Source: a virus. Taken from it: a DNA stretch of 40,674 nt. The notes beneath the pieces were generated by a model. It was not told the DNA's origin and did no database searches. It saw nothing but the letters and a program-made list of their open reading frames with translations. Of the stretch, positions 11,338 through 30,240 are shown piece by piece; positions within the stretch are counted from its first letter, which is position 1; each line of letters starts with the position of its first letter. The stretch covers positions 1 to 40,674 of the IMG/VR virus record IMGVR_UViG_3300037246_001354. One strand, 5' to 3'. Position numbers and translations under genes: made by a program.

Positions 11338-11340
11338 CAG

Positions 11341-12275: not shown

Positions 12276-12288
12276 TATTTCTTCTCCT

Positions 12289-12846: not shown

Positions 12847-12858
12847 TTTATTTTCTCC

Positions 12859-13434: not shown

Positions 13435-14404
13435 TATAATAACAACCTACTCTACATACATCTAATGCATTACAATTTTTACACTCTTCTCTTAAATTTT
13501 TAATACATTCTGTTTTAAAAGTATGTGCTGGTGTAATATATTCATTTTGTAATTCTATCATTGTTTTTAAACTGCCATCCTCTTTTAAAACACTGCCTAA
13601 TTTTATTCTTGTTTGATTACAGTATTGAAAATCCCAATTCGCATTTATTAATCCGGTTTTAGGACAGGTACAACATGTTGTACCAAAATGAAAATTAGTT
13701 AAGTCAATCATATTTAACTCATTTATCATTTCTTGTGTATAGAAACAAATCGGAAAAGAATGGTCTGTTCCCCATTCTATACCTCTACTTTGTAATTCTG
13801 GTATAATTTGCTTAAGGGTATCTATATATATTTTTCTATACTCTTTGGTTACTTCTTCATCAAACACATCTACTTGTGTATCACATGATATTGTATATTT
13901 TATATCAGGATAATAAATCATGCAATCTAACATCTTCTGAAGTATTTCCTTGTATCCCCACATAGTTATTACAAAGTGTAAATTTAATTTTCTATTAAAT
14001 CCTCTCCACTTTTCATACGTTACAGGGTCAAATGCATAACCATTTATAGTATATGTGATTTTCTCTTTATAATGTTCTCTTACTATATCTGGATGGGTAG
14101 CAATTTTATTTAACGTTCTACCATTAGTGAATAAATCAACTAACAAATAGTGCTTAGTGGATTCCAAAAGAATTTCAATTATTCTTGGATGAAGTGTTGG
14201 CTCACCACCCATAATTAAACATCTCTTATCACTCAGATGAGCACTATTTGTTCTTATAAATTCAATATAAAGGTCTGCATCCATCACAGCCTGATCTCTT
14301 GCTTCCGCATTAAAACAATGAGGGCAATCTAAATTACAATTTTCTGTTACAACAAATCTATGGCATAACTCTCTCACAATTATTTCTCCCTTTAAGTCCA
14401 TCAA
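13403..14404 (-). CDS. radical SAM enzyme with C-terminal SPASM domain (333 aa)
   Basis: N-terminal CNLDCPHC is an exact CX3CX2C radical-SAM cluster motif, followed by a GGEPTLHP SAM-binding motif. C-terminal CKNCNALDVCRVGC is an exact SPASM CX2CX5CX3C motif, with additional upstream Cys residues (CCTCP...C) for an auxiliary cluster. Confidence 0.7.
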   Translation of the reverse strand: MMDLKGEIIVRELCHRFVVTENCNLDCPHCFNAEARDQAVMDADLYIEFIRTNSAHLSDKRCLIMGGEPTLHPRIIEILLESTKHYLLVDLFTNGRTLNKIATHPDIVREHYKEKITYTINGYAFDPVTYEKWRGFNRKLNLHFVITMWGYKEILQKMLDCMIYYPDIKYTISCDTQVDVFDEEVTKEYRKIYIDTLKQIIPELQSRGIEWGTDHSFPICFYTQEMINELNMIDLTNFHFGTTCCTCPKTGLINANWDFQYCNQTRIKLGSVLKEDGSLKTMIELQNEYITPAHTFKTECIKNLREECKNCNALDVCRVGCYYNALVEHSKGG

Positions 14405-14422: not shown

Positions 14423-14788
14423 CTAGACTATACCGGTATCTTTGGTGGACCCGTCAGATTGAAGTGATATTTTATTTTCTACTTCTCTTTTGGTCTTGGC
14501 AAGCTCGCTACTCATTTCTAAGAATTTCATTTTGAGCTTGTCCATTGACCGTTTCTTAATTCTAAATTTCTTTTCCAAGATAGAGCTTTTTACACTATCA
14601 CCAAGTATGAAATCAAATTTTGACTTCCTCTTCAGTAACTTATTTAGCTCATTTATCTGATTTACTACGTCACTTTCTAATTTAAATTCCTCTTGAATCT
14701 TACGTACGAGTTCTTTATTACCGGTATCCTTATCAACGATGCCGATATTGAGATTTCTAAAATCATCTATGTATTTTTTAAATTTCAT
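14423..14788 (-). CDS. hypothetical basic coiled-coil protein (121 aa)
   Basis: ORF from the track, Lys/Glu-rich. Its start abuts the stop of the upstream giant gene. Confidence 0.4.
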   Translation of the reverse strand: MKFKKYIDDFRNLNIGIVDKDTGNKELVRKIQEEFKLESDVVNQINELNKLLKRKSKFDFILGDSVKSSILEKKFRIKKRSMDKLKMKFLEMSSELAKTKREVENKISLQSDGSTKDTGIV

Positions 14789-17700
14789 TATGGACTACTC
14801 GTACTAATGCTTAATGACTCGCTTTCAGAGCTAGATGATTGACTGCTTGAGCTAATACTTGAACTGCTGCTAGAACTAGAAACACTTGACGAGCTAGAAC
14901 TGCTAAGGCTTGATGAAGAGCTAGAACTGCTAGAACTTAGAGAACTCGAACTCGAAGAAACACTGCTCGAAGAGCTAGAACTACTACCCGGACAGATAAA
15001 GCCACCACTAACCAATAAGAAGTTATCAAATGCCGCTGAAACAATTGGAGTTCCTGTATAATTTTGTACATATAATGATACATCTACTTCTTCAAAAGTC
15101 TGTACAGTATAAGGACCACCAATCGCAACCCAAGTTGATCCATTCCAATAGTATGACTGCCAATCATCACCAACTCTGGTGATTCTGAATCCACCACTAG
15201 TTATAGGCGCTGAAACATTTGTACTGTCAATCACAACACCACCAGATACCATTTCTTCTGTGATTGTGGTTGTATGCGCTCTCTTATAAACTCTTGTTCC
15301 CCTACTTCCAGCTGTAAATTGTAGTACTTCAAATCCTACATTCCAACCACTACCACTAACTATTGATAATTCTCTCCAATCAGTTTGAACATCAAAATTT
15401 TCATTTGTAGGTATTAACCATCTTGTTGTTGCTTTAGATAGATTTGTTGTATCGTCTACATGTATTATAAGTTCTTCGCCGCTTACTATCATATTACCTA
15501 CTGTGGTCCATCTTTGTACATCTGGTACTGTTCCATCAGGTTGATCGAAGTCATCATTCGGTGTGATGAAACAAGAGAAACTACTGCTTGATGTCGAACT
15601 ACTACTAAATGATTCAGAACTAGAACTAGAACTTAATGAACTAGAACTGGAATCAGAACTGGATGAAATACTGCTCGATGAAATACTGCTCGATGAAATA
15701 CTACTCAATGAGCTAGAGCTAAGACTCGAGCTGCTCGACGAGCTTGATCTGGAGCTGGAACTAGAACTTACAGAACTGGAGCTTGAAGAAACGCTACTTG
15801 AACTAGAAGAAATAGAGCTTATACTTGATGAACTCGATGATCTACTTGAACTGGAAAAACTTTCACTGCTTGAAGATATTGAACTTGAACTCGCGCTTGA
15901 ACTGGAGAGAATAAATCTATCTTCAAGTTCTTTAATTAGTTCGTAATAATCTGCTGGAGTCAATCCACAATTTTCAAATTGTGATCCTTTATATCTTCTT
16001 CTTATTCTTGCTTTTTTCCATGGTGTAGATGAGCTAGATAAGCTTGAAGAACTAGAACTTAATGAGCTAGAACTGGAACTAGAACTTAATGAGCTAGAAC
16101 TGGAACTGGAACTTAATGAGCTAGAACTGGAACTGGAACTGGAACTTAATGAGCTAGAACTGGAACTGGAACTTAATGAATTAGAAGAACTCGATGAACA
16201 ATCATCTATAAGATAACTTCCTAAAGTTCCTGTAGCAAATTTACCAACATAAACATATTTTCCATCGCCCCAAACTGAAAGCAATCCGGCATCTACTTCT
16301 GTGTTTGTATCAAGAAGTGTTAAATTACCAGAACCATCTACTACATGACTCTTGAAGCCTTGAGTAAGATCGGCACAATAAATAAAAGTTCCATCTCCCC
16401 AAACTTTTTGAGGTTGCCCACCTGCTAATACAGTAACATATGATAAATTACCAGATTCATCAACAGAGTAAGTTTGCATTCCTTCATTTTGATTAGCAAC
16501 ATAAATAAAGTTTCCATCACCCCAAACACCCTGGTAGTTACTACCACCACCTTGCTTTTGGGTAGAAATATGATTTAAATTACCTGCACCATCAACAGAA
16601 TAACTTAAAATACCAATACCAGTCGAAGCAACATAAATAAAATTTCCATCACCCCAAACATCTTTATAAATACTGCCTTGGTCATCTACATCTTTAAATG
16701 TTAAGAAACCAGCACCATCAACAGAGTAACTTCTAAGACCTTGATTATCACAAGCACAATAAATAAAAGTTCCATCACCCCAAACACCCTGGTAGTTATC
16801 ACCTTGATCTATTAAATGTATTGGAGTTAGGATACCATTTTCATCAACAGAATAACTTCTAAGTCCAAGGTGGCTATTAGCAACATAAATAAAGTTTCCA
16901 TCCCCCCAAACACCATTATAAGAATTGCCTTGATCGTCTGTATCTACATGCGTTAAAACACCTGAACCATGATCGACTGAAAAACTTCTAAGACCCTCAA
17001 GTTCACCCGCAACATAGATATAATTTCCATCACCCCAAATATCAGCATATGAATCACTACCTACGGTAATATCATCCATAAGTGCTATATCACCTGAACC
17101 AGTACAGGTTGACGACGAACTACTGGAACGAGATGAACTTGATACTGATGATGAACTAATAGATGAACTAGATAAACTGGATGAACTAATAGAGCTAGAA
17201 CTAGAACTCGAACTTAATGAACTAGAACTTAGCGAACTCGAACTTAATGAGCTAGAACTGGAAATAGAACTAGAACTGCTTGAAGATGAATTGAAATTAA
17301 TTTCAAAATTCTGAGTATAGCCTGTAGCACTATCGGCGGGAGAAGCACCGGAATCTCTGGAAACTAATACATAAAGATATTGTTTTGCTCCAGTTTCACA
17401 GGTAATTGATAGTGCATCTATTAATGATCCCGAGGTTCTAGCGGAATCGGAGTGAATATCTAGTGTTGCTATAGTTCCATTCCTTTTGAAAGAGCAATAT
17501 AATAAATCAGATGATGTTCCACCATCATTATAAGCTTCTGTATTATCTGTGTTCTGGTCGCTTATTCTAAAATCTAAACTGTTACTATTTCCATAGGCAT
17601 AAACTACTATTCCATCATTTCCGCTGAATTGATCGTTAAATGTTCCAATTATGTTAGAAACAGAACACAAAATTGTTTGAGAAATAGTACCAGTAACAGC

Positions 17701-17877
17701 AGTAATTTGCATTTCAAAATCAATGTCAAAATCACTAAAATGACCTACACCAAAATCATAATATGCATAAGAGACATCATCCCTGCGCATTGCAGTGAAT
17801 GTAGCCGCAGAAGAGTCTAAAGTAAAAACACCAGCGCTGCCAACTGCTGTATATGTAGTTAAATTTTCAATTGCCAT
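14788..17877 (-). CDS. giant fiber/adhesin-like protein: poly-Ser linkers + LVIVD-like beta-propeller + jelly-roll-like module (1029 aa)
   Basis: Eight ~45-aa repeats of form y.GVWGDGnFIYVA...GLRSYSVD.sGnLT. Four long SSSSLSSSS linkers. Central module CFITPNDDFDQPDGTVPDVQRW...FDNFLL is shared with two paralogs. Confidence 0.55.
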   Translation of the reverse strand: MAIENLTTYTAVGSAGVFTLDSSAATFTAMRRDDVSYAYYDFGVGHFSDFDIDFEMQITAVTGTISQTILCSVSNIIGTFNDQFSGNDGIVVYAYGNSNSLDFRISDQNTDNTEAYNDGGTSSDLLYCSFKRNGTIATLDIHSDSARTSGSLIDALSITCETGAKQYLYVLVSRDSGASPADSATGYTQNFEINFNSSSSSSSSISSSSSLSSSSLSSSSLSSSSSSSSISSSSLSSSSISSSSVSSSSRSSSSSSTCTGSGDIALMDDITVGSDSYADIWGDGNYIYVAGELEGLRSFSVDHGSGVLTHVDTDDQGNSYNGVWGDGNFIYVANSHLGLRSYSVDENGILTPIHLIDQGDNYQGVWGDGTFIYCACDNQGLRSYSVDGAGFLTFKDVDDQGSIYKDVWGDGNFIYVASTGIGILSYSVDGAGNLNHISTQKQGGGSNYQGVWGDGNFIYVANQNEGMQTYSVDESGNLSYVTVLAGGQPQKVWGDGTFIYCADLTQGFKSHVVDGSGNLTLLDTNTEVDAGLLSVWGDGKYVYVGKFATGTLGSYLIDDCSSSSSNSLSSSSSSSSLSSSSSSSSSSLSSSSSSSSLSSSSSSSSLSSSSSSLSSSSTPWKKARIRRRYKGSQFENCGLTPADYYELIKELEDRFILSSSSASSSSISSSSESFSSSSRSSSSSSISSISSSSSSVSSSSSSVSSSSSSRSSSSSSSSLSSSSLSSISSSSISSSSISSSSDSSSSSLSSSSSSESFSSSSTSSSSFSCFITPNDDFDQPDGTVPDVQRWTTVGNMIVSGEELIIHVDDTTNLSKATTRWLIPTNENFDVQTDWRELSIVSGSGWNVGFEVLQFTAGSRGTRVYKRAHTTTITEEMVSGGVVIDSTNVSAPITSGGFRITRVGDDWQSYYWNGSTWVAIGGPYTVQTFEEVDVSLYVQNYTGTPIVSAAFDNFLLVSGGFICPGSSSSSSSSVSSSSSSLSSSSSSSSSSLSSSSSSSVSSSSSSSSISSSSQSSSSESESLSISTSSP
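16053..16186. repeat. tandem 27-33-nt serine-codon repeat (about 5 copies) inside the 1029-aa gene
   Basis: The unit acttaatgagctagaactggaact(ggaact) recurs head-to-tail and encodes SSSSLSSSS. The period is always a multiple of 3. Confidence 0.7.
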
Positions 17878-17882
17878 ATAAT

Positions 17883-17892
17883 CTATTTATCC
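17883..17892 (-). promoter_or_regulatory. late-promoter-like GATAAATAG junction motif
   Basis: Minus strand reads GGATAAATAGATTAT-ATG, a 7/8 match to the T4 late consensus TATAAATA. The same motif recurs at four other gene junctions. Confidence 0.3.
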
Positions 17893-17893
17893 T

Positions 17894-20800
17894 TTATGGT
17901 GCTGTACTGCTAGAAGAAGTACTACTTGAACTAAAACTTCCAGCACATATAATTCCATCTGCTGAATTTACAACAAAATCATTCAAACTAATTGTTGATG
18001 TTGTTGCGTCGCCTGCTTTTAGATGTATTTGAATTTTTACATCCCCTGTGTAATCAGAAAGTAGAGCACCAGTTGTACTAGCCTGAGCACATATACTACC
18101 CCATCTTGATTGTGGTCCATACCAGGTCCATCCTCTTATTTCGTCACCAATTCTTGTAAATCTAAGACCTGGGTCACGTGGGTTCGCATCGTAACCTTGA
18201 TTACAAAATCCAGCTGTAGTACCTCTACCACCAACTCGATTTGCACCACCAGTTTGTTTATAGTTACGTATCATGGCTACCTCTAATGCTCCTAATCCTC
18301 CACTAGCTGGAACTACCTGCATTTGTGGAAACCAGTTTTCTGTTGTAGGATTAACGCCATGGAAATAACCAAGATGACCAATATGAATATCAAAGTCACC
18401 AACAAATCCATTTCTTGACTCTATAACGAAAAGTCTATCACCAACAGTAGATGCACTAGGATTGAAGTATAATGTATTATTCTTTATATATGCTCCATCT
18501 GGATCATCTGCCTGTAGTATACTCCACTTTTGAAGGTCTACTGAGTCACCATCACTGCCATCGAATGAATCATCAGGTACGATTTCACAAGAAACGCTAC
18601 TTGAACTTGTAGATGAACTAGAACTAGAACTTAATGAACTAGAACTAGAACTTAATGAACTAGAACTCACAGAACTACTTGAACTACTTGATGAACTTGA
18701 ATATGTTTCTCCAAATATACATTGTGCATTACTATTAAAATCACCTATGTATAGATACCTTACAGTTGTTCCTTCTCCTGATTTATCACCATTTGTATGT
18801 ACTATCTCTAATCCAACTTCACTAGGAAATCCTGTTATAGTTGGTGCTGAAAAGTAATCCCCGCCTCCTTTATTAAAATGGAATGTATCACCACTTCTTT
18901 GTAAGCGAAGGTTATAATCTCCATTCATAGCAGGATCATCAATCTGGATTCTTCCAGTTGGCACACCTGCGCTAGGCGTGTAATCATAATATGGTTGTGT
19001 TCCATTGAGGCCAGAATGGTATAATGCGGCTCCAAACTCAAAATACCAATCAGCGCCACTCGTAGGTAAGTCGAAAATTCTTAGATACTGTCTATGTCCA
19101 TCTACATCATGCCCAGAACCATCTGTATTTGAATAAGCAACCGTATAGTGTAAACTAAAGTTTCCATCAAAGCTACCTGTGAAAACAAATCTGGTTTTTC
19201 TATCCGTGATTGATAAATCTTGGTCATTTACAACTGATTCCATTACATAATCACCACTAATAAAACCATATTTTAACCACTCATCAACATTATTAGATAG
19301 TGGATGAGTAGTGTTCCATAATTGGCCACCTGGTTGTGAGTCGTTAGTATATGGAGTAGTAGGAGGCGGTGCGGCAGAAGCACAATCATTTCCACAACCA
19401 TCAAAACCACCACCATAGTTTTCAGATACACCCTTTTCTAAAAATGGTTCTTGTAATTGGAATCCAGCGGATGGTGTTAATACACAACTAAATGAACTAG
19501 AAATTGATATTGAACTTGATGAAAAACTTGAACTTGATGATGAGCTTGAAAGTCCACAGAATGAAACTAATACCCAAATTTGAAAAAGGTATCCATTTCT
19601 TAAAGCGCCCGAAGTATTACCGAATGCAAAGTCAATATCCAGATTTCTAAGATCATCCCATATCCAATTTTTATATCCCGGCCCCGCAGCATCATTAGTT
19701 ATATCAAAGGTATATATAGTTCCTCCTGCTCCTATAGTAGCAGGAAGTTGATCTGTTCCATAATCAGTTCCAGGAGTAACACCATCAAATCTTGGTGTAA
19801 AATTTCTTAATTTTGGATTCACTTTCGTATTTTCAGAAGCTATTTTAACTCTTATTTTAACTCCAAATATATCACCATATTCAGCCCCTGAAGGTATAGT
19901 ATTACCAGTAAATCTTAACAAATCACTTTGTGCACTACCCCATACATCAAATCTTGCATATGTATTTGGATCACCATCTGTGGAGTTAGGTAAATCAACC
20001 CAACTACCAGATTGTCCACCCAAATTTGAAACTGTATTATAGTCATAAGCGCCTTCTGGTATGCCAAGCGGACAAGATGAACTACTGCTTAAGGAAGACG
20101 ATGAAGAAGACGATGAAGAAGAAGTCGATGAACTGGAACTACTACTAGAAAATGTTTCTCCAATTATACAACCTGCATTACTCAAAGTATCCGCAAAATA
20201 ATCCATTCTAACTTCTGATCTTTGGTCAGTCCTAATACCATTTGTGTGTATTATTTCAATTCCAACCTCACTTGGAAAATCTGCTATTGTTACGTCTAAA
20301 GCTTTGGAATCACTGTTTCTATAAAATTGAAATGTTTGTCCTGATCTAAGTATTTTAGCTCTATGTCCAGCACTCTGTTGCCAGAAGGTGTCACCGGTAT
20401 ATTTAGTTCTTCCATTACTCACACCAGCACTTGGTGTATAGTCAGCGTAAGGTGATGATCCACCAATTCCAGTCTGCCATATGAGAACACCACATTCTAC
20501 GTACCAATCAGCGCCACCTGTTGGTAAATCGAAAAATCTAAAGAAGTACCTATGACCATCTACATCCACACCGCTATCTGTTGAGGCACTCCAAGGTGTT
20601 GCAAAGTTAATGCTGAAATCTCCATCAATTTTCCCTGTGAATTTATATTCGGTTTGTCTTTCTGATCCGGACACTTCCAAGTTATTTACTATTGATCTCA
20701 TTGATAAATATGGTTTATTGCTATTATCAGGATCAGCTCCCCAACTGTAGTAACTTAAAGAATTATCGCTATTATTAGGTTTTGGTGTAATTACTTCGAA

Positions 20801-22762
20801 TAATTGTCCACCAGGTTGAGCACCTAATGTATATGGAGTAGTTGGTGGCGGCGCTGCTGATGCAGGAGTAACTGGATATGGTAAATTTCCAATGTAGTCT
20901 CTTGATTCACCAGCTTCTAAGAATGGCTCAAGTATTTGGAATCCTCCGGCTGATACTAATACACAACTAAATGAACTAGAACTAAATGAGCTAGAACTAG
21001 AACTTAGAGAACTCGAACTTATAGAACTACTGCTCGAGCTAGAACTTGAACTTAGAGAACTACTGCTCGAGCTAGAACTTTCAGAACTAGAACTTACAGA
21101 ACTAGAACTTGAACTAGAACTTTCAGAACTAGAACTTGAAGAACTGGAAAGAGAACTTGAAGAACTCGAAGAAGAAGAACTCCATAAGCTTCCTTGACCA
21201 GCTATTACTAATAATGAGTCATTTGGTGGTGAACTTGATGCTGCCCAAACTCTCATTGTTTTTGAATCTATAAAATTTATCTCTATTGGGTAGTATATTT
21301 CTTTTGTTTCAGTATCCCATAATGTTGCTGCGTACGTATGTTGAACACCCATATAATGTACTATATCTGCATAGTATATACTACCACTTGGTACCCACAC
21401 TGCTTCATATTGTATATCTGATTCTGTTCCATCCTCCACTATCCTTATTTGTTTAAATATTAATTTATTATCTGTTGAATAAGGAAAAGCACCATCAGCT
21501 ACATATGACAATAAATCACAGATGTTTTTATTACTTATGACTTTATTATATCCAGCTGGTGGATCAGTTGTCGTTTTCCAAGAATAATCAAATTCACCCC
21601 AAGTTACTTTCATCAATCCATGAGTACCCACGGTACAAATTGTTTCACTTACTGAACTACTGCTTGAACTTACAGAGCTGCTACTACTGCTTGAACTTAC
21701 AGAGCTGCTTGAACTTGAAGAACTACTGCTCAAACTACTAGATGAACTAGATGAACTAGACGATACAGAACTAGAACTACTACTTGAACTGACACTTGAG
21801 CTACTTGATGATACTGAACTTGAGCTACTTGAAGAATATGAACTTGAAGAGGGTTCTACTTCATAACTAAACAAAATTCCATTAGGGATACCTACATAAA
21901 CGAAGTTTCCATCACCCCAAATTCCTCTGGAACCTGGAGCACTATCAAGTAGTATTAAACCACCAGTAGGATTTACAGAGTAGCTTGTAAAATTGCCTGT
22001 CGAATAAACAAGCTGTCCATCACCCCAAACTTTCCACGCATCTCCTGCTTCTAAGTTTCTACTTACATATGTTAAATTACCAGAAGGATCAACTGTGTAA
22101 GTTAAAACCCCCCTGGCATTACTAGAAACATACAAAAAGTTTCCATCCCCCCAAACATCAGTATATGAATTGGCAGGAACCTGAACTTCATAGTGTTTAT
22201 CTACAAATGTTAAATTACCAGAACCATCAACTGTGTAAGTTAAAAGTCCACCATTGGCTTGACCAGTAGTTATATAAATAAAATTTCCATCACCCCAAAC
22301 ATTTCTATATACAGTTGATCCTCCAATCCAATGAACATCTTTATATGTTAAGAAACCACCACCGTCAACAGAGTAGCTTTTAATTCCTTGCCATTGACTA
22401 GCAACATAAATAAAATTTCCATCACCCCAAACACTTACATAACCATTACCTCCAACTATTCCCCCTTGTAGGTGTTCATCTATAAATGTTAAATTACCAG
22501 AAGGATCAACGGAATAAGTTCTAAGACCACCAAATTCACAAGCAGCATAGATGAAAGTTCCATCTCCCCAAACGCCTGCATAAGCATGACCCTGGTCATC
22601 TGAATGTATAAATGTTAAATCACCAGAAGGATTTACAGAGTAAGTTCTAAGACCAGCAGCATCACAAGCAGCATAGATAAAGTTTTCATCTGTCCAAATA
22701 GCCATTGGTGTACCAGTACCCTTGTCATTTGTATCTTTAAGTGTTATATCACCTGCTGCCAT
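17894..22762 (-). CDS. giant fiber/adhesin-like protein with internal ~400-aa tandem domain duplication (1622 aa)
   Basis: N-terminal propeller repeats (VWGDGNFIYV...), then five poly-Ser linkers and two paralogous ~400-aa domains (SSFSCVL...AAPPPTTPYT...DVDGHRYFFRFFDLPTGGADWY...FPSEVGIEIIHTNG). C-terminal module CEIVPDDSFDGSDGDSVDLQKW. Confidence 0.55.
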   Translation of the reverse strand: MAAGDITLKDTNDKGTGTPMAIWTDENFIYAACDAAGLRTYSVNPSGDLTFIHSDDQGHAYAGVWGDGTFIYAACEFGGLRTYSVDPSGNLTFIDEHLQGGIVGGNGYVSVWGDGNFIYVASQWQGIKSYSVDGGGFLTYKDVHWIGGSTVYRNVWGDGNFIYITTGQANGGLLTYTVDGSGNLTFVDKHYEVQVPANSYTDVWGDGNFLYVSSNARGVLTYTVDPSGNLTYVSRNLEAGDAWKVWGDGQLVYSTGNFTSYSVNPTGGLILLDSAPGSRGIWGDGNFVYVGIPNGILFSYEVEPSSSSYSSSSSSSVSSSSSSVSSSSSSSSVSSSSSSSSSSLSSSSSSSSSSVSSSSSSSSVSSSSSSVSETICTVGTHGLMKVTWGEFDYSWKTTTDPPAGYNKVISNKNICDLLSYVADGAFPYSTDNKLIFKQIRIVEDGTESDIQYEAVWVPSGSIYYADIVHYMGVQHTYAATLWDTETKEIYYPIEINFIDSKTMRVWAASSSPPNDSLLVIAGQGSLWSSSSSSSSSSLSSSSSSSSESSSSSSSSVSSSSESSSSSSSSLSSSSSSSSSSISSSSLSSSSSSFSSSSFSCVLVSAGGFQILEPFLEAGESRDYIGNLPYPVTPASAAPPPTTPYTLGAQPGGQLFEVITPKPNNSDNSLSYYSWGADPDNSNKPYLSMRSIVNNLEVSGSERQTEYKFTGKIDGDFSINFATPWSASTDSGVDVDGHRYFFRFFDLPTGGADWYVECGVLIWQTGIGGSSPYADYTPSAGVSNGRTKYTGDTFWQQSAGHRAKILRSGQTFQFYRNSDSKALDVTIADFPSEVGIEIIHTNGIRTDQRSEVRMDYFADTLSNAGCIIGETFSSSSSSSSTSSSSSSSSSSLSSSSSCPLGIPEGAYDYNTVSNLGGQSGSWVDLPNSTDGDPNTYARFDVWGSAQSDLLRFTGNTIPSGAEYGDIFGVKIRVKIASENTKVNPKLRNFTPRFDGVTPGTDYGTDQLPATIGAGGTIYTFDITNDAAGPGYKNWIWDDLRNLDIDFAFGNTSGALRNGYLFQIWVLVSFCGLSSSSSSSSFSSSSISISSSFSCVLTPSAGFQLQEPFLEKGVSENYGGGFDGCGNDCASAAPPPTTPYTNDSQPGGQLWNTTHPLSNNVDEWLKYGFISGDYVMESVVNDQDLSITDRKTRFVFTGSFDGNFSLHYTVAYSNTDGSGHDVDGHRQYLRIFDLPTSGADWYFEFGAALYHSGLNGTQPYYDYTPSAGVPTGRIQIDDPAMNGDYNLRLQRSGDTFHFNKGGGDYFSAPTITGFPSEVGLEIVHTNGDKSGEGTTVRYLYIGDFNSNAQCIFGETYSSSSSSSSSSVSSSSLSSSSSSLSSSSSSSTSSSSVSCEIVPDDSFDGSDGDSVDLQKWSILQADDPDGAYIKNNTLYFNPSASTVGDRLFVIESRNGFVGDFDIHIGHLGYFHGVNPTTENWFPQMQVVPASGGLGALEVAMIRNYKQTGGANRVGGRGTTAGFCNQGYDANPRDPGLRFTRIGDEIRGWTWYGPQSRWGSICAQASTTGALLSDYTGDVKIQIHLKAGDATTSTISLNDFVVNSADGIICAGSFSSSSTSSSSTAP

Positions 22763-22803
22763 TTAAAATGTCCTTATTGTTAAATTATTCCATGTCATTT
22801 AAT

Positions 22804-22813
22804 CTATTTATCC
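22804..22813 (-). promoter_or_regulatory. late-promoter-like GATAAATAG junction motif
   Basis: GGGATAAATAGATTAAATG..., followed by an 11-codon mini-ORF ending IRTF* whose TAA overlaps the ATG of the downstream giant gene (TTTTAAATGG). Confidence 0.3.
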
Positions 22814-22814
22814 C

Positions 22815-25166
22815 TTATACTGCATATGATACCCTAAGTTCTGCACATAATGTTGTTGATAAATCATAAGCTTTAGCATCTCTATGTGTATTATTACTTG
22901 AGGCATCATTAATAATATGTACTGTCAAAGCCTGTCCAGTATTCCATCCAGCCCTTGCAAAATGTGTTTCTAATATTGAACTAAAATCATCTGAATCATA
23001 AGTATTACCATCAGACCAAATCTGTTCCCCATCCCAAGGTATTGAAGCCCCTAAAGGTCTACCAAGAAGATCGCCACTTCCAGTGGGTGCTGTTGGATTA
23101 TCAGCATCCTCAATTCGAATGTTTGTTCTGAAGGTATTATTTGGTCCTGACAAATTCGAAACAAAACGCAAAATCGCAGATGAAATGACAGTATCTTTTG
23201 GAATTGTAACTGATGAAAAACGAAACCATCCACGATTAGAGGCACCTTGTCTGTTTCCCATATTCACAGATACATTTGAATTAATCCACCCAGACCCATT
23301 TACATTGGACTGACCATCATCAGCGCCTGTTGCTATCCTAACAGCAAATGCAGCTAGCGAAGTAGAGGAACTTGAACTGCTTTCTGATGATGAACTTGAG
23401 CTTGAGCTTACTGAACTAGAACTTGAACTTAGTGATGATGAGCTACTACTTGATATTGAACTGGAACTTACAGAACTTGAGCTACTTGACGACGATGTGC
23501 TAGAACTAGAACTGGAACTTAGAGAACTTGAGCTTTCTAAGTCACCTTCTAATTGTTTCGATATATGACACTCAATTTGATAAGCAAGAGAATTACTAAT
23601 TGCTTTATTTTTATCATTTACATCGGCGTCACCAGTTGGATCATCTATTTGACTCCAATCTTGTGGATCAAATGGTGTATCATATATTGGGTGAAAATCA
23701 CCCCAAGTCATTATTCTATCTGCTGACTTAACACCACCATCATCGTCCCACTCTAATTTAATTCTATCATCCCACTCATAACCAAGTGGATCTACATTAT
23801 TCCACATTTCATCTTTTAAGTAGAACTCAAATATTCCACCATCAAAAGCTGAAGTAGCGGTTGAAGTAGTAACCGGGTTAGATATTTGCAAACCAACTTT
23901 ATCATATAATTCTGCTAAAACAACCGTATCAGTTTTATCAACATGTACAAAAACTGTTACTTCTTCTCCGACCCTTGGTACGCCTTGTCTATCTCTTAAT
24001 GAATACCAGAAATGCTTGAGTGTTGGTAATGCCAAACTAGTACTACTTGAACTTGAACTAAGGCTTGAGCTACTTGAACTTGAACTAAGGCTTGAGCTAC
24101 TTGATGAAGAGCTAGAACTAAGGCTTGAGCTACTTGAACTAAGGCTTGAGCTACTTAAACTGCTACTTGAACTACTTGAACTTAAAGAACTCGAACTTGA
24201 GCTAGAGCTAAGAGAACTTGAAGATGAACTTAAAGAACTCGAACTAATACTTGAACTTGAGCTACTGCTTGATTTTTCTGCTTCATATGACCAAAAATTC
24301 GTATCAGCACCACAATAAATAAAATTACTATCTGCCCAAATACCTCCATAATCACCACCTTCATCCTCTATATCTATAAATGTTAAATTACCCGAACCAT
24401 CTACACGATGGCTTCTTACGCCATCAATAGTATTGGCAGTATAGATAAAGTCTCCATCACCATAAACATCATCATAATCACCACCCTGATAATTCGTATC
24501 ATTTAGCGTAAAGCCTACACCATTATTACTAAAACTCCTTAAACCATCAGTACCACAAGCAACATAAATGTAGTTTCCATCACCCCAAACCCGTCTAAAT
24601 CCCTCTCCTGCAGCGGTAAAATACGATCCTATAAAAGTCAATTCACCTATGCCATTAACAGTATACTTAAGTATACCACCAGGAGTACCAGAAACAGCAA
24701 CATAAAGATATATTCCATCACCCCAAATACCCGAATAAAAACCACCCTGATCGTCATCATCAACTTCTGTTAATACGCCATTTCCGTCTACTGTGTGACT
24801 TCTAATACCAAAGCTCATAGCAGCAGTATAAACAAAATTTCCATCAGCCCAAACGTCCTGGTGAAAAGTAAAAACATGAGTACTTTTATATGTTAAAATA
24901 CCAGCACCATCTGCTTGATAGGTCAGCAATCCATCAGTCCCAGAAAGTGTTACATAAATAAAAGTTCCATCCCAAAAAACAAATTCATATCGTTTGCCTT
25001 GGTCATCTTGATCTACAAATGATAAATTCCCCGAGCCATCAACAGAGAAACTTTTTAATCCGTTAAAACTATCAGCAACATAAATGTAGTTTCCATCACC
25101 AAAACTTCCCCTATATCCAGGAGTACCACCGCCACCACCGATAAATGTTAAATCACCATATCCCAT
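22815..25166 (-). CDS. giant fiber/adhesin-like protein, propeller + Ser linkers + C-terminal globular domain (783 aa)
   Basis: N-terminal propeller repeats (FGDGNYIYVADSFNGLKSFSVDGSGNLSF...), two long poly-Ser linkers, and a C-terminal ~180-aa domain. Confidence 0.55.
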   Translation of the reverse strand: MGYGDLTFIGGGGGTPGYRGSFGDGNYIYVADSFNGLKSFSVDGSGNLSFVDQDDQGKRYEFVFWDGTFIYVTLSGTDGLLTYQADGAGILTYKSTHVFTFHQDVWADGNFVYTAAMSFGIRSHTVDGNGVLTEVDDDDQGGFYSGIWGDGIYLYVAVSGTPGGILKYTVNGIGELTFIGSYFTAAGEGFRRVWGDGNYIYVACGTDGLRSFSNNGVGFTLNDTNYQGGDYDDVYGDGDFIYTANTIDGVRSHRVDGSGNLTFIDIEDEGGDYGGIWADSNFIYCGADTNFWSYEAEKSSSSSSSSISSSSLSSSSSSLSSSSSSSSLSSSSSSSSLSSSSLSSSSSSLSSSSSSSSSSLSSSSSSSSLSSSSSSTSLALPTLKHFWYSLRDRQGVPRVGEEVTVFVHVDKTDTVVLAELYDKVGLQISNPVTTSTATSAFDGGIFEFYLKDEMWNNVDPLGYEWDDRIKLEWDDDGGVKSADRIMTWGDFHPIYDTPFDPQDWSQIDDPTGDADVNDKNKAISNSLAYQIECHISKQLEGDLESSSSLSSSSSSSTSSSSSSSSVSSSSISSSSSSSLSSSSSSVSSSSSSSSESSSSSSTSLAAFAVRIATGADDGQSNVNGSGWINSNVSVNMGNRQGASNRGWFRFSSVTIPKDTVISSAILRFVSNLSGPNNTFRTNIRIEDADNPTAPTGSGDLLGRPLGASIPWDGEQIWSDGNTYDSDDFSSILETHFARAGWNTGQALTVHIINDASSNNTHRDAKAYDLSTTLCAELRVSYAV

Positions 25167-25276
25167 TTAAAATGTCCTCATTGCTATTATTCTATTGCTG
25201 TTACTACAAAAGTACCCGCTGAAATCACTATCTGCTTCGGTATATTCACCTAATATATTTTCAATTGTCATATAAT

Positions 25277-25286
25277 CTATTTATCC
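25277..25286 (-). promoter_or_regulatory. late-promoter-like GATAAATAG junction motif with 34-codon mini-ORF
   Basis: GGATAAATAGATTAT-ATGACAATTGAAAAT... The mini-ORF MTIENILGEYTEADSDFSGYFCSNSNRIIAMRTF* shares its first codons with the 1029-aa gene (MAIENL...) and ends in the TTTTAAATGG start context of the 783-aa gene. Confidence 0.3.
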
Positions 25287-26102
25287 TATTGCTGTTATCA
25301 TAAACAATGCTGCAGATGGAGGAGTTGTTACAAATATCCTTAAATCATTTAGTCCTATAGTTTTTATTGTTTCTGGGATTATTAAATTATTATTATTTCT
25401 ATCTATTACTTGTACTATTGGATAATCATTATTGAGATTATGACTAATATCAGCATAATATAATGATCCAGAAGCTGCAAGAGCATGATCTTCTGGTATG
25501 CGACTGAAGTCTATGTCCGCAGCAGAAGCATCAAGAGATGTAGTCGACGCGCTTACTGCAAGAGTATAGATTTTATTTAGTAGTCTATTGCTGACTACTT
25601 TATTATATACATCACTCGAATCACATACAATAACAGGATGAATATTATGTGGTGATGCTGATGGAACCTCTGAATTAACATGTTGTTCCCATCTATACGC
25701 CAGAGCATTATTAATTAGTTTGTTTCTTCTAACTGCTTCATCATTTGGTGATTGACCACCTAAAGTTTCATCAATTTGGTATAGTGGTGGATATACATCA
25801 ATGTTCTGTATTGTGCCTCTTGATATACCAGGTTTATACCATGTTAACTTAAACCTTTGTGTGGATACGTAACCACCTTCTAATTCCCACTCATCACCTA
25901 CCCAAAACTCAAAGTATCCATCTGAATTTGTTACCAAGCTAACTGCATCCGTAGTCGTCATATGACCAACGGTTGGGTTGGTATAAATGCTTGCATACTG
26001 TGTGCTATCAGTATCTTCATTTAGAAAGAAGTCTACATCCACATTGATTATAGGTCTACCTTCTTCATCCACTATATACTGCCAATAATGTATTCTCGCC
26101 AT
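25281..26102 (-). CDS. fiber-associated protein (273 aa)
   Basis: NKLINNALAYRWEQHVNS ~ DKNKAISNSLAYQIECHISKQ in the 783-aa protein. SLYYADISHNL ~ SIYYADIVHYMG in the 1622-aa protein. Confidence 0.45.
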   Translation of the reverse strand: MARIHYWQYIVDEEGRPIINVDVDFFLNEDTDSTQYASIYTNPTVGHMTTTDAVSLVTNSDGYFEFWVGDEWELEGGYVSTQRFKLTWYKPGISRGTIQNIDVYPPLYQIDETLGGQSPNDEAVRRNKLINNALAYRWEQHVNSEVPSASPHNIHPVIVCDSSDVYNKVVSNRLLNKIYTLAVSASTTSLDASAADIDFSRIPEDHALAASGSLYYADISHNLNNDYPIVQVIDRNNNNLIIPETIKTIGLNDLRIFVTTPPSAALFMITAIG

Positions 26103-26120
26103 TATATATTTCCTCTTTAT

Positions 26121-26129
26121 CTATTTATC
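26121..26129 (-). promoter_or_regulatory. late-promoter-like GATAAATAG motif ~22 nt upstream of the ATG at 26102
   Basis: Minus strand reads GAAATAGATAAATAGATAAAGAGGAAATATATA-ATG. The spacing leaves room for a transcription start plus an AGAGGAAA RBS. Confidence 0.35.
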
Positions 26130-26178
26130 TATTTCTCTGTATACTGCTTAAAATTTAATCACATGAACTACTTGAACT

Positions 26179-29100
26179 CTACGTGCAATCGTTTACTTCA
26201 AAACTTCCAAGTTTTCCTGATATATTATGGGCGCAACCAAACACATATTTTCCATCGCCATAAACACCACGCAAAGCAGTATCAAAAGTAGTATCAGTAT
26301 CAAGAAGTGTCGGAAAACCAGAACCATTTACTATAATACTATTTAGACCACCTTCTGTTGTATAAACAAAAGTTCCGTCACCCCAAACTTCATCACCACC
26401 CACGTCAGCTAATGAAGTGATATACGTTAAATTACCAGCGCCATCAACAGAGTAAGTCATCAGTCCTTCATTTACATTAGAAATATAAAGGAAGTTTCCA
26501 TCACCCCAAACACCACGATAAGGACTACTACCACCACCTTGTTTATCAGTATCAATCCATGTCAAATTGCCACTACCGTCAACAGAGTAACTTACAACAC
26601 CGCCAGCACGAGCAGCACAATAAATGAAATTTCCGTCACCCCAAACATCATAATATTGCCCAACTCCTATAAAGTGTTGATCTTTAAATGTGAAAGCGCC
26701 AGCACCATCAACAGAATAACTACGAATTCCGTCAAAATAATTAGCAGCATAAACAAAAGTTCCATCTCCCCAAACACCATAATATGTATCACCATCATCT
26801 ATCGAATCTACATAAGTTAATATACCAGCACCATCAACAGAGTAAGACAATAGTCCAGTAGAACCAGAAGCAACATAAATGTAATTTCCGTCACCCCAAA
26901 CTCCTTCATATTGCCCCTTACCAGACTCAAAATGAACATCTACATGAGTTAACACACCTGACACTTCATCAACAGTATAAGTTCTAAGACCGGCAGCAAG
27001 AGCCGTAACGTAGATATAAGTTCCATCAAACCAAACATCAGAGTAAGTTCCGCCGCCTCGAGTGTCAGAGTCTTTAAGTACTATCTCCCCCTGACCTTCA
27101 CAAGATGAACTTGATGATGTACTTGAACTTGAACAAGACATTATTCCTGCATTTAAAGTAAAATTATCGAAAAACCATGTATTAAATTGAAAATTAGGTA
27201 ATAGAGGAAGTACTATTTTAAAAACAATATCTCCTGACCCAAAATCACTCATAGTCGATCTTAAAACAAAACCAGAACCATCTCCTTGGTCAACCCAAAC
27301 CTCAAGTGTATTACCTGTACGAACAAATCTTACTATACCACTAATATAATCCGCATTACTGTCTCTATATGTTTCTAAAACAGAACCATTATATTCTGTA
27401 ATATATATACTATGAACTTGAGAAGTATATCCCCTGTTCAATCGTACCCAATAGTTATTCGATTGATTCTTAACTTCAATATAAAAATTAAGGGGTTGTT
27501 TTACATCAGAAGAACCATGAGCATAATCTATTTCAAGGGATACATCATCTTGGAATTTAGCGTTATTGGTTAATGTTGCCGAACTTGTAAATGGGTCACT
27601 AAACATTCTTAATGTATCACTATCTATTTGACATATACCTGAACCTGTTACTACTCTTGTCCATCTATCAGAATCAGGAAAACTTCCGTTTGGACCTGTA
27701 AAATCATCATTTGGATCAAAATTACATTGTAACACTTGTACTGTATTTGAACTACTTGAACTGACACTTGAACTAGACCAAGATGATGAACTGGCACTTG
27801 AACTAGACCAAGATGATGACGAACTTGAACTAGACCAAGATGATGACGAACTTGACTCAGTTACAAATAATGCCTGCGTCCTGTAATGAAATACGGTCTG
27901 TACTTCAATAGGTTTGTGTAATTCAGAACACCTTGAATAGTACATTAAATCATCATTAACATTAAATAAACCAACTTCTCTTATTGTTAGCTCTTCTCCA
28001 ATCGGAACAATGAAGTCAATATAGTAATTTTCAGTATCTTGCCATACTCTCCAATAGTCTCCACTTGCTGTAACTGATTCAACATCATTAAACGAATATG
28101 GATTATATTCAACAGTTGTGCCATTACCAACCTTCCAGTATCCTAATCCATCTGGACATATTCCAAGTTTAGTTATATCACAATCATTACTTGTTCTTGC
28201 AACTACGACTGGCTCAAACCAAATAAAATAAGCCTCACCTGATTGAGCCGTTCCAAATTCTACAACAGCAGTGCTTCTATTTGGAAGAGTTACACTTATA
28301 GGATTTATATAATTACCATTTGAGTCATAGGTTTGAATAATCATACCATCAGTACCAGTATCATGGTTAATGGTCCAGGTGGTTGAGGCTACTGCTTGAG
28401 TATAATTATAATCAGCAGTTCTAACAAGTGCCTCACCAGTCTGATTTGTTGACCATATAGCTTCTGTTCTATCACCATCTACTATTGATGCGGAAAGAGG
28501 CCATGATTTAGACGGAGAAGTCCAGAAATTGGCAAGGGTTCTAGCTGGAACAGGATACCCACTTGGTGCTGCAGTTTCTAAACCATGAATTATTGTCCAG
28601 GTACTATTTGGTGCTACTTGATCGTACTCAAATGACATTTCAGGTTTATAGTATCCAGCTATGCAAGCAATACCAGATATTGCTTCATCGAAAGTTAACC
28701 TAACAATGTTATCTGTTAATATTTCTATATTGCTTGGTACTACTCTCTCCATTGGTAAGAAAGATACTTCTGTGGTTGGTTTCCACGCTTGGACCATTAT
28801 ATTTGTTCCAAATTCATGTGTTATCGTCCATGTTGTTGATGCATTATATTGAGTATAAACAATTGCAAATTGACCAGCATTAGGTGTTGGTTTAGCAGCA
28901 GATAAGAATTGAGAACCAGTAAATGTAGTATTAAAGTATCCAAGTGATGTTAAAGGGTATAAGGATTCTGTTTCACCGGTTCTACTCTGAATAGAAGCAG
29001 GTGATATAAGCTCTTGATATTGTACGTATTTACCGACAGGTCTTACATACTCCCAGTTTCTTATAAACTCATCTATATAAAACTTATTTAAAATCCAATC

Positions 29101-30240
29101 TTCATTAAATTTATCACCAATAGGTTCAGTAGTCAAATCAATTTCTGTAATATAATGAGGAGTTATTACCATACTACCACTTGGTGTTGCACTACCTATA
29201 TCACAACCTGCAGATGGCGCTTCAAGAGCAAGATTTGGATATGGGTTCATATCAATAGAGTATGGATTTGGTACTGGGGCACCAGATGGGATGAACTGGT
29301 CATACCAAGCTTTTCCAGCACCACCACTTGGAGAAACATTATAAAATTCTAGCCAGTTAAAGTCATTAACGCCAGGAGCAAAACCAGGAAATTCTTTAAA
29401 CGGTGGTATGTCTCCGGCTCCACTTTGACACCACTCTTGCCATCTTTCATATATATTCATAGCATTTACTGACCCACCAGAAAATATGTCATATACTACG
29501 TAAAGTGCGTCGTATGTGCCTACTCTTTTTAAGAAATAAACTAGTAAGTCAACCCACTCTCTAAGCACAGCATCATCAATATCTTCATTAATTAAGATAC
29601 CATACATACTGGCTATATATCCCAACCAGCGAGAGTCTATTTCTTTCGCATCTAACAGCGCCCACAGATATTTGGTCATATTATATGGTTCATGGTTTAC
29701 TTGGTCAAACCATACTTTAATAAGTTCTACTAAGTTAGTTGTTCTATTTACATCAGGTAATGCAGACTCCATATAGTCCTTCATGCCTTCAAATTCTATA
29801 TTCCAAATGTCTTCCTCACCTGATATTGGCCAAATTTTACCAAAGAAACAAAAGGTTCTATTAGTGTTTATGAAGTTTCTGAACTGATCTACATTTTCAA
29901 GGAGATATTCATAGAAATTCCCATCTTTTCTAAAATACATATCATTTCCCACCTCAAATATGGCTGCTGATACGGCTATCCCATTTATAGAGTGAGTGGC
30001 GAGGTTACCATCATATAACATTTTGAATTTATTACCATCTATCTCTTGAATAATAAAACTGTACGGTACAAAACCAAAATCCTCATTATCTTCATATAGT
30101 GTTGTAGCTATACCACCATCTGAAATCAGCGCTTTTTTAATACCCCAAATCCAAGAATCAGATGCTGTTCCTGCTCCACTACCGATAAAATCAAAATATT
30201 CTTTTAAAATATCATAGTTTGAATCACTAAATTTACTCAA
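26179..30240 (-). CDS. giant baseplate-distal fiber-like protein (1353 aa), TTG start
   Basis: TTG start preceded by an AAGGAGA RBS. The ~700-aa N-terminal region is unique, then poly-Ser/Trp linkers (SSSSWSSSS x3), a jelly-roll-like module (LQCNFDPNDDFTGPNGSFPDSDRW...FDNFTL) and a C-terminal propeller of VWGDGNYIYVA repeats. Confidence 0.55.
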   Translation of the reverse strand: MSKFSDSNYDILKEYFDFIGSGAGTASDSWIWGIKKALISDGGIATTLYEDNEDFGFVPYSFIIQEIDGNKFKMLYDGNLATHSINGIAVSAAIFEVGNDMYFRKDGNFYEYLLENVDQFRNFINTNRTFCFFGKIWPISGEEDIWNIEFEGMKDYMESALPDVNRTTNLVELIKVWFDQVNHEPYNMTKYLWALLDAKEIDSRWLGYIASMYGILINEDIDDAVLREWVDLLVYFLKRVGTYDALYVVYDIFSGGSVNAMNIYERWQEWCQSGAGDIPPFKEFPGFAPGVNDFNWLEFYNVSPSGGAGKAWYDQFIPSGAPVPNPYSIDMNPYPNLALEAPSAGCDIGSATPSGSMVITPHYITEIDLTTEPIGDKFNEDWILNKFYIDEFIRNWEYVRPVGKYVQYQELISPASIQSRTGETESLYPLTSLGYFNTTFTGSQFLSAAKPTPNAGQFAIVYTQYNASTTWTITHEFGTNIMVQAWKPTTEVSFLPMERVVPSNIEILTDNIVRLTFDEAISGIACIAGYYKPEMSFEYDQVAPNSTWTIIHGLETAAPSGYPVPARTLANFWTSPSKSWPLSASIVDGDRTEAIWSTNQTGEALVRTADYNYTQAVASTTWTINHDTGTDGMIIQTYDSNGNYINPISVTLPNRSTAVVEFGTAQSGEAYFIWFEPVVVARTSNDCDITKLGICPDGLGYWKVGNGTTVEYNPYSFNDVESVTASGDYWRVWQDTENYYIDFIVPIGEELTIREVGLFNVNDDLMYYSRCSELHKPIEVQTVFHYRTQALFVTESSSSSSWSSSSSSSSWSSSSASSSSWSSSSVSSSSSNTVQVLQCNFDPNDDFTGPNGSFPDSDRWTRVVTGSGICQIDSDTLRMFSDPFTSSATLTNNAKFQDDVSLEIDYAHGSSDVKQPLNFYIEVKNQSNNYWVRLNRGYTSQVHSIYITEYNGSVLETYRDSNADYISGIVRFVRTGNTLEVWVDQGDGSGFVLRSTMSDFGSGDIVFKIVLPLLPNFQFNTWFFDNFTLNAGIMSCSSSSTSSSSSCEGQGEIVLKDSDTRGGGTYSDVWFDGTYIYVTALAAGLRTYTVDEVSGVLTHVDVHFESGKGQYEGVWGDGNYIYVASGSTGLLSYSVDGAGILTYVDSIDDGDTYYGVWGDGTFVYAANYFDGIRSYSVDGAGAFTFKDQHFIGVGQYYDVWGDGNFIYCAARAGGVVSYSVDGSGNLTWIDTDKQGGGSSPYRGVWGDGNFLYISNVNEGLMTYSVDGAGNLTYITSLADVGGDEVWGDGTFVYTTEGGLNSIIVNGSGFPTLLDTDTTFDTALRGVYGDGKYVFGCAHNISGKLGSFEVNDCT
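27757..27866. repeat. tandem 33-nt repeat x3 encoding SSSSWSSSSSS linker
   Basis: cttgaactagaccaagatgatga(a/c)... repeated three times within the 1353-aa gene. Confidence 0.6.

Follow-up and report, generated by a model that had tools for sequence, protein, structure and literature searches.

Four fibre-like genes and their junctions

The DNA studied here (the window) is a stretch of 40,674 nucleotides (nt), positions 1 to 40,674 of the IMG/VR virus record IMGVR_UViG_3300037246_001354, and judged by its gene content it is from a distant T4-like phage. Our subject is a cluster of four genes in this window (14788-26102) and the three inter-gene junctions (J1, J2, and J3) that join them, each of which carries the same short sequence just before an ATG. 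The genes of the region all lie on the minus strand, and the junction sequences are given as read on that strand. In reading order, the four genes encode proteins of 273 amino acids (aa; 25281-26102), 783 aa (22815-25166), 1622 aa (17894-22762), and 1029 aa (14788-17877), with J3, J2, and J1 lying between them in that order. The proteins are modular and fibre-like, with beta-propellers and other domains separated by poly-Ser linkers; the propeller domains carry VWGDGNFIY repeats and gave a match to Pfam Lactonase.

Other T4-type genes in the window include gp25-like and gp6-like baseplate wedge genes, a gp5-like hub gene, and SbcCD-like gp46/gp47 genes, and strong Shine-Dalgarno (SD) sequences of the AGGAG type stand before most genes. 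A megablast search of 14-32.5 kb against INPHARED phages gave no match and no close relative there. The relatives used below were found in IMG/VR and in JGI, ENA, and Logan metagenome assemblies, and the corresponding loci are given L-numbers (L075, L086, L092, and so on).

An earlier note on this DNA had described a sequence shared by the three junctions. The 13-mer GGATAAATAGATT is indeed present on the minus strand in three exact copies, against none in 100 dinucleotide shuffles, and it extends to a 14-mer, GGATAAATAGATTA, at 17879-17892, 22800-22813, and 25273-25286. The 14-mer ends 2 nt, and its GATAAATA core 6 nt, before the first ATG. In general, the upstream gene's stop codon is followed by (A)AGG-ATAAATA-GAT and this by an ATG; an 11-mer from within the repeat, GATAAATAGAT, has a fourth copy at 26119-26129, upstream of the 273-aa gene. 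In the same place, the 8-mer AAATAGAT is tandemly duplicated as GAAATAGATAAATAGATAAAG (26119-26134), and this 8-mer occurs 11 times in the window, with 5 occurrences expected. An exact scan of IMG/VR with a 21-nt junction pattern gave 0 matches.

At J1, the cassette (17879-17892) begins 1 nt past the TAA of the 1622-aa gene and combines an SD-like AGGA with GATAAATA, the late-promoter-like core ATAAATA being at 17884-17890. The junction reads ...GCA CCA TAA A GGATAAATAGATTA T ATG GCA ATT GAA AAT, where the ATG at 17877 opens the 1029-aa gene itself with ATGGCAATTGAAAATTTAACTACATATACA (17848-17877; MAIENLTTYT). This N terminus is kept at the protein level in L116, L117 (6001-6090), L114, and L075 (11477-12049), and thus even in distant, GC-rich phages with 32% overall identity. 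The opener ATG(G/A)CAATTGAAAAT pointed out before is found both at the start of the 1029-aa gene and in the mini-open reading frame (mini-ORF) of J3, and the identity of ATGRCAATTGAAAAT between J1 and J3 can be explained by the fact that MAIENLTTYT is conserved at the protein level. The MAIENL-type domain is also found inside proteins, behind poly-Ser linkers (..YKPYENLTTYTEV, ..IPFENLLTFTEV). A PDB sequence search with this N-terminal domain and the 273-aa protein gave nothing useful.

At J2, the cassette (22800-22813) again begins 1 nt past a stop codon, the TAA of the 783-aa gene, and is followed by a mini-ORF of 11 codons, MTWNNLTIRTF* (22763-22798), whose TAA stands directly before the ATG at 22762. 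The whole reads ...GCA GTA TAA G GGATAAATAGATTA A ATG ACA TGG AAT AAT TTA ACA ATA AGG ACA TTT TAA ATG GCA GCA GGT. Its last part, the 16-mer AGGACATTTTAAATGG (22759-22774), holds an SD sequence AGGA, an 8-nt spacer ending in the TAA of the upstream ORF (uORF), and the ATG of the 1622-aa gene, which is propeller-first. The L093 orthologue of this J2 copy is AAGGATATTTTAAATGG. A second exact copy of the 16-mer lies at 25163-25178, with none in dinucleotide shuffles. An exact IMG/VR scan with the 16-mer returned 72 single matches, which we judged to be due to chance.

At J3, the cassette (25273-25286) overlaps the upstream gene, the GGA TAA at 25281-25286 being the last codon and stop of the 273-aa gene, and the TAA (25281-25283) occupies positions 3-5 of GATAAATA. 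This junction reads ...GCA ATA GGA TAA ATAGATTA T ATG ACA ATT GAA AAT ... GCA ATG AGG ACA TTT TAA ATG GGA TAT GGT. Its mini-ORF, MTIENILGEYTEADSDFSGYFCSNSNRIIAMRTF*, has 34 codons (25167-25271), abuts the ATG of the 783-aa gene (25166), and is a chimera of three pieces. The first (25230-25271; MTIENILGEYTEAD) is a 14-codon stump of what would be a displaced N-terminal-domain gene, the second (25187-25229) is what is left of the 3' end of the 273-aa gene in a foreign allele of L086 type, with a mutated last codon and stop, GAATAA, and the third (25167-25186; TAGCAATGAGGACATTTTAA) is a putatively donor-derived intergenic region with an SD sequence GAGGA, ending in the TAA that abuts the ATG. The mini-ORFs are real and, as given in the earlier note, have 11 and 34 codons and both end in RTF*. 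The note had the TAA and the next ATG overlapping; the two codons in fact abut in the same frame (ACA TTT TAA ATG G).

J3 was matched at 100% by an independent Logan assembly (SRR11832550), in which the automatic gene caller placed the start of the 783-aa gene at the downstream ATG. Exact-protein look-ups with the 783-aa and 1029-aa products returned none on record.

The late-promoter-like core and the mini-ORFs

The window encodes a late sigma factor of the gp55 family (10814-11278, minus strand), which matched PHROG_234, "late sigma transcription factor," with an E value of 1.9e-32 and would be expected to read NATAAATA promoters. In a tblastn search it matched 2464 T4-like phage records, the best match being a cyanophage gp55 with 43% identity, and the annotated matches among those listed were named gp55 or late sigma factor. 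The gp55-like gene is itself preceded by a sigma-70-type extended -10 element (TGATATAAT; 11279-11340, minus strand), which fits an early or middle gene, and TGnTATAAT-like elements also precede 8623-9081 and 39331-39606.

The GATAAATA core at J1, J2, and J3 fits the T4-type late promoter NATAAATA. The late promoter of T4 is TATAAATA at -13 to -6, with the T at -13 poorly conserved in most T4 relatives (Nolan et al., PMC1524935), and the late promoter of cyanophage S-PM2 was reported as NATAAATA (PMC2984593). Given that the -13 position is variable in T4 relatives, GATAAATA therefore matches all of the informative positions. We counted motifs on the coding strand of the window and 24 non-redundant related loci and found ATAAATA 55 times in 37.6 kb of non-coding DNA versus 44 times in 229 kb of coding DNA, the non-coding target being ∼6-fold smaller. 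ATAAATA was also the commonest 7-mer across 92 unique short intergenic gaps, occurring in 23 of them (3.8 times over composition), with no reverse complements and at a rank level with SD words.

The position of ATAAATA is conserved before the homologues of gp6 and of the 273-aa gene and at the head of the structural operon. The region upstream of the gp6-like baseplate gene, AGATAAATAATAAACATAAGAGGAAAACAGATG (31976-32008), has the gp25 stop inside the core, and the region upstream of the 273-aa gene, AGATAAATAGATAAAGAGGAAATATATAATG (26100-26130), has the core, an SD sequence, and the ATG. The operon head (37916-37962, minus strand) has a perfect TATAAATA, a 32-nt leader, AGGAGG, and an ATG, all kept in L080, L081, and L082. 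A second TATAAATA copy lies at 38331-38338 (minus strand), and ACTAAATA, with the CTAAATA variant described for late promoters of phage Aeh1, lies at 36758-36805 (minus strand), ∼38 nt before the ATG of a 119-aa gene; L073 keeps this site as TACTAAATACAAAAG. In T4, the ATGs of genes 34, 36, and t are preceded by TATAAATA at distances of 34, 23, and 17 nt, respectively, and the t promoter encloses the gene 38 stop codon (TA-TAA-ATA) in a register identical to that of J3 (GA-TAA-ATA).

It had been argued that the core, being only 6 nt from an ATG, did not look like a simple promoter. This does not hold for two of the three junctions, where the distance from the core to the true start is 42 nt (J2, 1622-aa gene) and 111 nt (J3, 783-aa gene), each start having its own SD sequence with AGGA 8 nt upstream, in a phage that encodes gp55. 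The predicted transcription start is the sixth base past the core, 1 nt before the cassette ATG, and transcripts started at the cassette would have leaders of 37 nt (J2) and 106 nt (J3). Since such leaders with an SD sequence are the normal layout of T4 late genes, the objection is limited to J1. A sigma-70 promoter scan of 14-33 kb gave a total equal to the shuffle expectation and no promoter at the junctions on the gene strand, and a terminator scan of the same region was at chance level with no terminator-like site at the junctions.

Turning to the mini-ORFs, an ORF that starts with ATG and ends in TAA directly followed by the ATG of the main gene is present at every one of the five propeller-first junctions in this clade (J2, J3, L090, L092, and L093). 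In shuffles with the TAA held fixed, the probabilities of reaching the observed lengths were 0.031, 0.003, 0.032, 0.040, and 0.049; that of the 34-codon ORF of J3 staying open was about 0.003. At J2 and J3, the SD sequence lies inside the end of the uORF with the TAA abutting the ATG, the layout is alike in L090, L092, and L093, and AGGA N8 ATG or an equivalent SD sequence is kept across the uORF junctions despite differing peptides. The RNAs of six junctions were less structured than shuffles (z of +0.1 to +1.7), which fits initiation regions, and no Rfam match was found. The peptides of the J2 and J3 mini-ORFs are not conserved and there is a 2-nt indel between their shared 3' parts; no peptide function is therefore expected. 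An argument from uORF length differences being multiples of three was dropped as circular.

The open uORF frames, above all that of the 34-codon chimera at J3, point to selection, and the overall pattern suggests termination-reinitiation coupling. The translational coupling proposed in the earlier note is thus plausible, given that five of the five related junctions keep an ORF ending at TAA|ATG.

These data can also be read more simply, as plain internal gp55-dependent NATAAATA promoters giving one late transcript per fibre gene, with the mini-ORFs being untranslated leaders in which the frames are accidental. The presence of gp55, the similar layout of the T4 fibre cluster with a stop codon inside a promoter, and the location of the main ATGs of J2 and J3 at 42 and 111 nt behind their own SD sequences all agree with such promoters, as does the position of the uORF ATG of L093, which precedes the predicted transcription start; the propeller-first gene of L141 does without a uORF. 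However, accidental frames would not be expected to persist in 5/5 junctions as in-frame ORFs running to TAA|ATG (P of 0.003 to 0.05 each), the open 34-codon chimera of J3 is hard to explain without selection, and J1 has no room for a leader. We therefore consider it unlikely that plain promoters are the whole explanation.

Recombination scars and a probable portable start module

The earlier note had also called the shared sequence a portable linker, and the related loci bear this out, as the same module precedes different fibre genes in relatives. Junctions of the form (A)AGGA(A)TAAATA stand before different fibre genes in L086, L090, L092, L093, and L099, and the ATAAATA core is intact in these relatives even where the GGA is shifted by one base or absent. 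The J2 cassette with the 5' half of its mini-ORF matches the L086 junction at 32 of 37 nt; past these shared 37 nt, L086 continues into a MAIENL-type gene and J2 into a propeller gene. CCATAA before the cassette is common to J1, L086, and L099a. When the homology at J1 was carried on into the 1622-aa gene at its 3' end (ACAGCA..), the score rose by only 2 points, which is not significant alone, and the extension was not retained.

The 273-aa homologues all end in ...(I/V)(I/V)G*, commonly ATAGGATAA, and the next gene, which is hypervariable, starts 1-13 nt further on, mostly at 3 nt (GGATAAtatATG). With fixed gene ends on one side and a hypervariable gene on the other, this site is therefore a boundary of conserved and variable genes. 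In L075, an intact MAIENL-type gene directly follows the 273 homologue. At J3, the stump in the same place is homologous to the 5' end of the N-terminal domain, and its ATATACCGAAG fits the L075 allele and not the resident 1029-aa gene. The inner relic of J3 matches the 3' end of the L086 273 homologue, including its stop codon, at 43 of 45 nt and is read out of frame by the mini-ORF. J3 thus reads clearly as a recombination scar, at which an incoming donor segment, made up of the 3' end of an upstream gene and the 783-aa gene, would have displaced an N-domain gene, the join on the left being imprecise; which way and in what order the segments recombined is inferred. The suggestion that the mini-ORFs are remnants of N-terminal exchange was therefore well placed: at J3 there are 14 codons of MAIENL type and an out-of-frame relic of 43 nt, and J2 resembles an MxWNN N terminus, its MTWNNLTI... 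being similar to MAWNNYIT... of a 2163-aa L099 gene and to MIWNNLKN... of the L086 mini-ORF.

A further scar-like arrangement is found at the equivalent junction of L092 (6320-6640), where a truncated 38-aa propeller pseudogene, MAAGDLTLLD...GF*, is followed by a second, degenerate copy of the cassette and ribosome-binding site (RBS), GATAAATAAAATGGAGATAAAACTAAATGG, beyond which lies another propeller-first gene, which is intact and whose RBS differs. The order of the shared domains and the genes that hold them differ in L086, L090, and L093. In more distant phages, the propeller is usually inside a larger gene, after a poly-Ser linker, and a poly-Ser linker is also the last part of the 1622-aa protein and of the 1029-aa protein, as if they were truncated. 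Taken together, these two facts make it look as if the same modules can be joined either through a cassette junction or through a poly-Ser linker. The DNA coding for poly-Ser is by far the most abundant repeat of the region; the giant proteins (14788-30240, minus strand) have long linkers of this kind (SSSSSLSSSS...) between their domains, and such DNA also yields spurious antisense LELELE ORFs, for example, at 15563-15946 and 24016-24318. A scan of IMG/VR with ATGGCWGCWGGNGAYHTAACWYT for more propeller-first starts returned 4 unrelated small proteins, and a protein search with the propeller N terminus returned 17 matches, one of which was propeller-first (P0012/L141).

We consider it probable that the junctions are a portable start module, made up of a late-promoter-like core, an RBS, and an ATG, that this module is a breakpoint of fibre-gene exchange, and that the relic uORFs are kept for coupling. 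The three junctions would then be copies of one start module shared by the fibre-gene cluster, in which an SD-like AGGA is combined with the ATAAATA core of a gp55-dependent late promoter (NATAAATA). With every fibre gene carrying the module, recombination at or near it could repeatedly have replaced, stacked, and split fibre genes, and imprecise exchanges would have left stumps, that of J2 being the first codons of an MxWNN-type gene and that of J3 the 14 MAIENL-type codons with 43 nt of foreign relic and the RBS of the donor. Translation of the 783-aa and 1622-aa proteins proper would begin at the downstream ATGs. On a polycistronic late mRNA, ribosomes coming from the upstream gene, or alternatively loaded at the cassette AGGA, may translate the stump, stop at its TAA, and restart at the adjacent ATG, reinitiation being helped by AGGA N8; transcripts started at the cassette would use the stump stretch as a leader instead.

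Several points weigh against this proposal. At J1, the core stands 6 nt before the 1029-aa gene (in L099a, before a 967-aa gene), which makes the predicted transcript leaderless, and the AGGA, at 12 nt from the ATG, is poorly spaced. The uORF of L093 has its ATG ahead of the predicted start of transcription. In L077, L084, L096, and L114, there are also ATAAATA copies only 0-2 nt before a start codon (AAGGATAAATA-ATG), where they can be only SD sequence and spacer; part of the intergenic enrichment therefore reflects RBSs or AT-rich composition. The five uORF junctions are related by descent, and their shuffle P values are neither independent nor to be multiplied. The distant propeller-first gene of L141 has a plain SD sequence with neither ATAAATA nor uORF; neither is therefore essential, and the uORF is a device of this clade and not an obligatory one. 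Among the window ORFs scanned, none had a PHROG match to the late-promoter co-activators gp33 and gp45, the window being part of a genome, and J1 and J2 have no independent assembly support and come from a single assembly of a repeat-rich region. Finally, use of the cassette as a promoter and translation and coupling of the uORFs are inferred from the sequence.

Less likely still than plain promoters is the view that the junctions are neutral scars, that is, leftovers of duplication or illegitimate recombination with no current role, their identity being due to recent events or gene conversion. The patchwork of relics at J3, the pseudogene and duplicated cassette of L092, and the non-conserved peptides with their 2-nt indel agree with such a view. 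It does not explain why the 14-mer is identical in all three copies while only about half of the aligned columns are identical in the adjacent propeller coding DNA, nor why ATAAATA is invariant across relatives with differing flanks, the uORFs persist, and the same core is conserved in position before non-fibre late genes.

A start-associated translation element or regulator site, with a factor of the phage or host binding the 14-mer in RNA or DNA and so tuning the expression of the fibre genes, in the manner of a translational operator or of the start-associated sequences (SAS) of mycobacteriophages (PMC3203893), seems very improbable. The motif does resemble an SAS in being 14 bp long, asymmetric, in one orientation, with an SD core, 2 nt before the ATG, and able to hold the upstream stop, and the copies within this genome agree better with each other than with orthologous copies in relatives. 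However, the copies number only 3 or 4 and all belong to a single gene cluster, no protein was identified as a candidate for binding them, no RNA structure or Rfam match was found, and the gp55 promoter consensus is a simpler account of the core. Stoperator-like repressor sites were rejected, there being only 3 or 4 copies in one cluster. Programmed recoding, in which the mini-ORF would be fused to the fibre protein as an alternative N terminus through readthrough of the TAA or a bypass like that of T4 gene 60, is scarcely credible: the mini-ORF and main ORF do share a frame with a single TAA between them in an identical context, and J3 has GGA TAA upstream and GGA downstream, but the TAA is the ordinary stop of neighbouring genes, no tRNA or suppressor genes were found in the window, the in-frame GGA-stop is present at J3 only and not at J1 or J2, the peptides are unrelated patchworks, one of which reads a relic out of frame, and a good SD sequence and ATG follow at once.

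Tail-fibre genes set the host range, and the way in which they are exchanged therefore matters for phage ecology and for the engineering of therapeutic phages. The locus appears to be an unusually legible record of fibre exchange in an uncultured T4-like lineage, with breakpoints at a shared start module of 14 nt and with J3 retaining a stump of the gene that was displaced as well as 43 nt from the upstream gene of the donor. Should the module be active as a late promoter and RBS, a fibre gene carrying it would be expressed wherever it lands, which would explain the stacking of such genes three deep. Gene boundaries and poly-Ser linkers would be interchangeable ways of joining the same domains, as suggested above, and the conserved relic uORFs, if coupling is real, would be a natural case of non-coding debris co-opted for translational coupling.

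Neighbouring genes and comparison with known systems

Next to the fibre cluster lies a radical SAM/SPASM-like gene (13403-14404, minus strand) with a CxxxCxxC motif and a match to Pfam Radical_SAM (E = 1e-12). It adjoins three tandem paralogues of 185, 185, and 191 aa (all within 11718-14404, minus strand), which start with M(D/K)FH(N/G)IT and share a conserved tail, ...GYRP(E/R)xRVG(I/L)(I/L)C. MDFH-type genes are found at the same place in L077, L099, and L084, with L077 having in addition two radical SAM genes and a small protein rich in Cys. Post-translational modification of virion proteins is a possible role of this locus. Between the baseplate genes (32387-32794, minus strand), a small Cys-rich protein is encoded that has N-terminal similarity to endonuclease VII (PHROG_1035, E = 7e-8) and is kept in L073 and L094, and an 843-aa protein with no PHROG match is encoded at 5013-7544 (minus strand), between the gp46/gp47 region and small genes.

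Among the closest known layouts is that of the late promoters in the T4 fibre cluster (genes 34, 36, and t). In both cases (T/N)ATAAATA stands on the coding strand in short gaps with an SD sequence before the ATG, the upstream stop can sit in the promoter, and gp55 is encoded. The junctions described here differ from these promoters in that the first base is G, an identical 14-mer is present three times, and an ATG follows 6 nt on; in addition, two copies are followed by a conserved uORF, J1 would be leaderless, and activity is predicted from sequence.

The SAS of Cluster K mycobacteriophages (Pope et al. 2011, PMC3203893), with the consensus GGGATAGGAGCCC, precede non-structural genes and number in the tens. 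Like the cassette, they are asymmetric, single-orientation repeats of ∼13 bp, a few bp before an ATG, with an SD core and sometimes the upstream stop, and they are associated with genes of different families. Unlike the SAS, which have no promoter-like core, the cassette has a different sequence and 3 copies, before structural genes, in a T4-like phage. Termination-reinitiation in phage operons similarly has an upstream stop adjoining the downstream ATG and an SD sequence within the end of the upstream ORF, whereas the upstream ORF here is a relic of 8 to 34 codons with no conserved peptide, found at five related junctions.

With respect to gene exchange, the fibre and adhesin genes of T-even phages (modular exchange of gp37/gp38) recombine between short conserved motifs (PMC3157838). 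Both systems have mosaic host-range determinants in which short conserved sequences bound variable modules, but the motifs of gp37/gp38 are coding and lie within genes, whereas the module shared here is an inter-gene start. The in-gene role is probably played here by poly-Ser linker DNA.

T4-type phages have mobile regulatory cassettes known as promoter-early stem-loops (PeSLs; Arbiol et al. 2010, PMC2839356; PMC4122927). They too are short and conserved and recur at the boundaries of genes where T4-like genomes are plastic, acting there as recombination points for the insertion, deletion, and replacement of genes, and the cassette described here flanks different genes in the window, L086, L090, L092, L093, and L099, as expected of a PeSL-like breakpoint. 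PeSLs are made up of a sigma-70-type early promoter and a terminator stem-loop and flank small non-essential ORFs, whereas our junctions have no sigma-70 promoter, terminator, or stem-loop and have instead a late-promoter/RBS core with giant fibre genes as cargo. One might tentatively see in them a late-gene counterpart of PeSLs, a self-contained, mobile stop-late promoter-RBS-start cassette that enters or replaces poly-Ser linkers and so splits or fuses fibre genes, allowing receptor-binding modules to move between phages and still be expressed, with the stump uORFs needed for reinitiation and a leaderless mRNA at J1; we regard this stronger version as possible and rather doubtful. The junctions are best described as being mostly a variation on known biology of the T4 family and, at the same time, a natural record in which the swapping of fibre genes, and their fission and fusion at linkers, can be clearly read.

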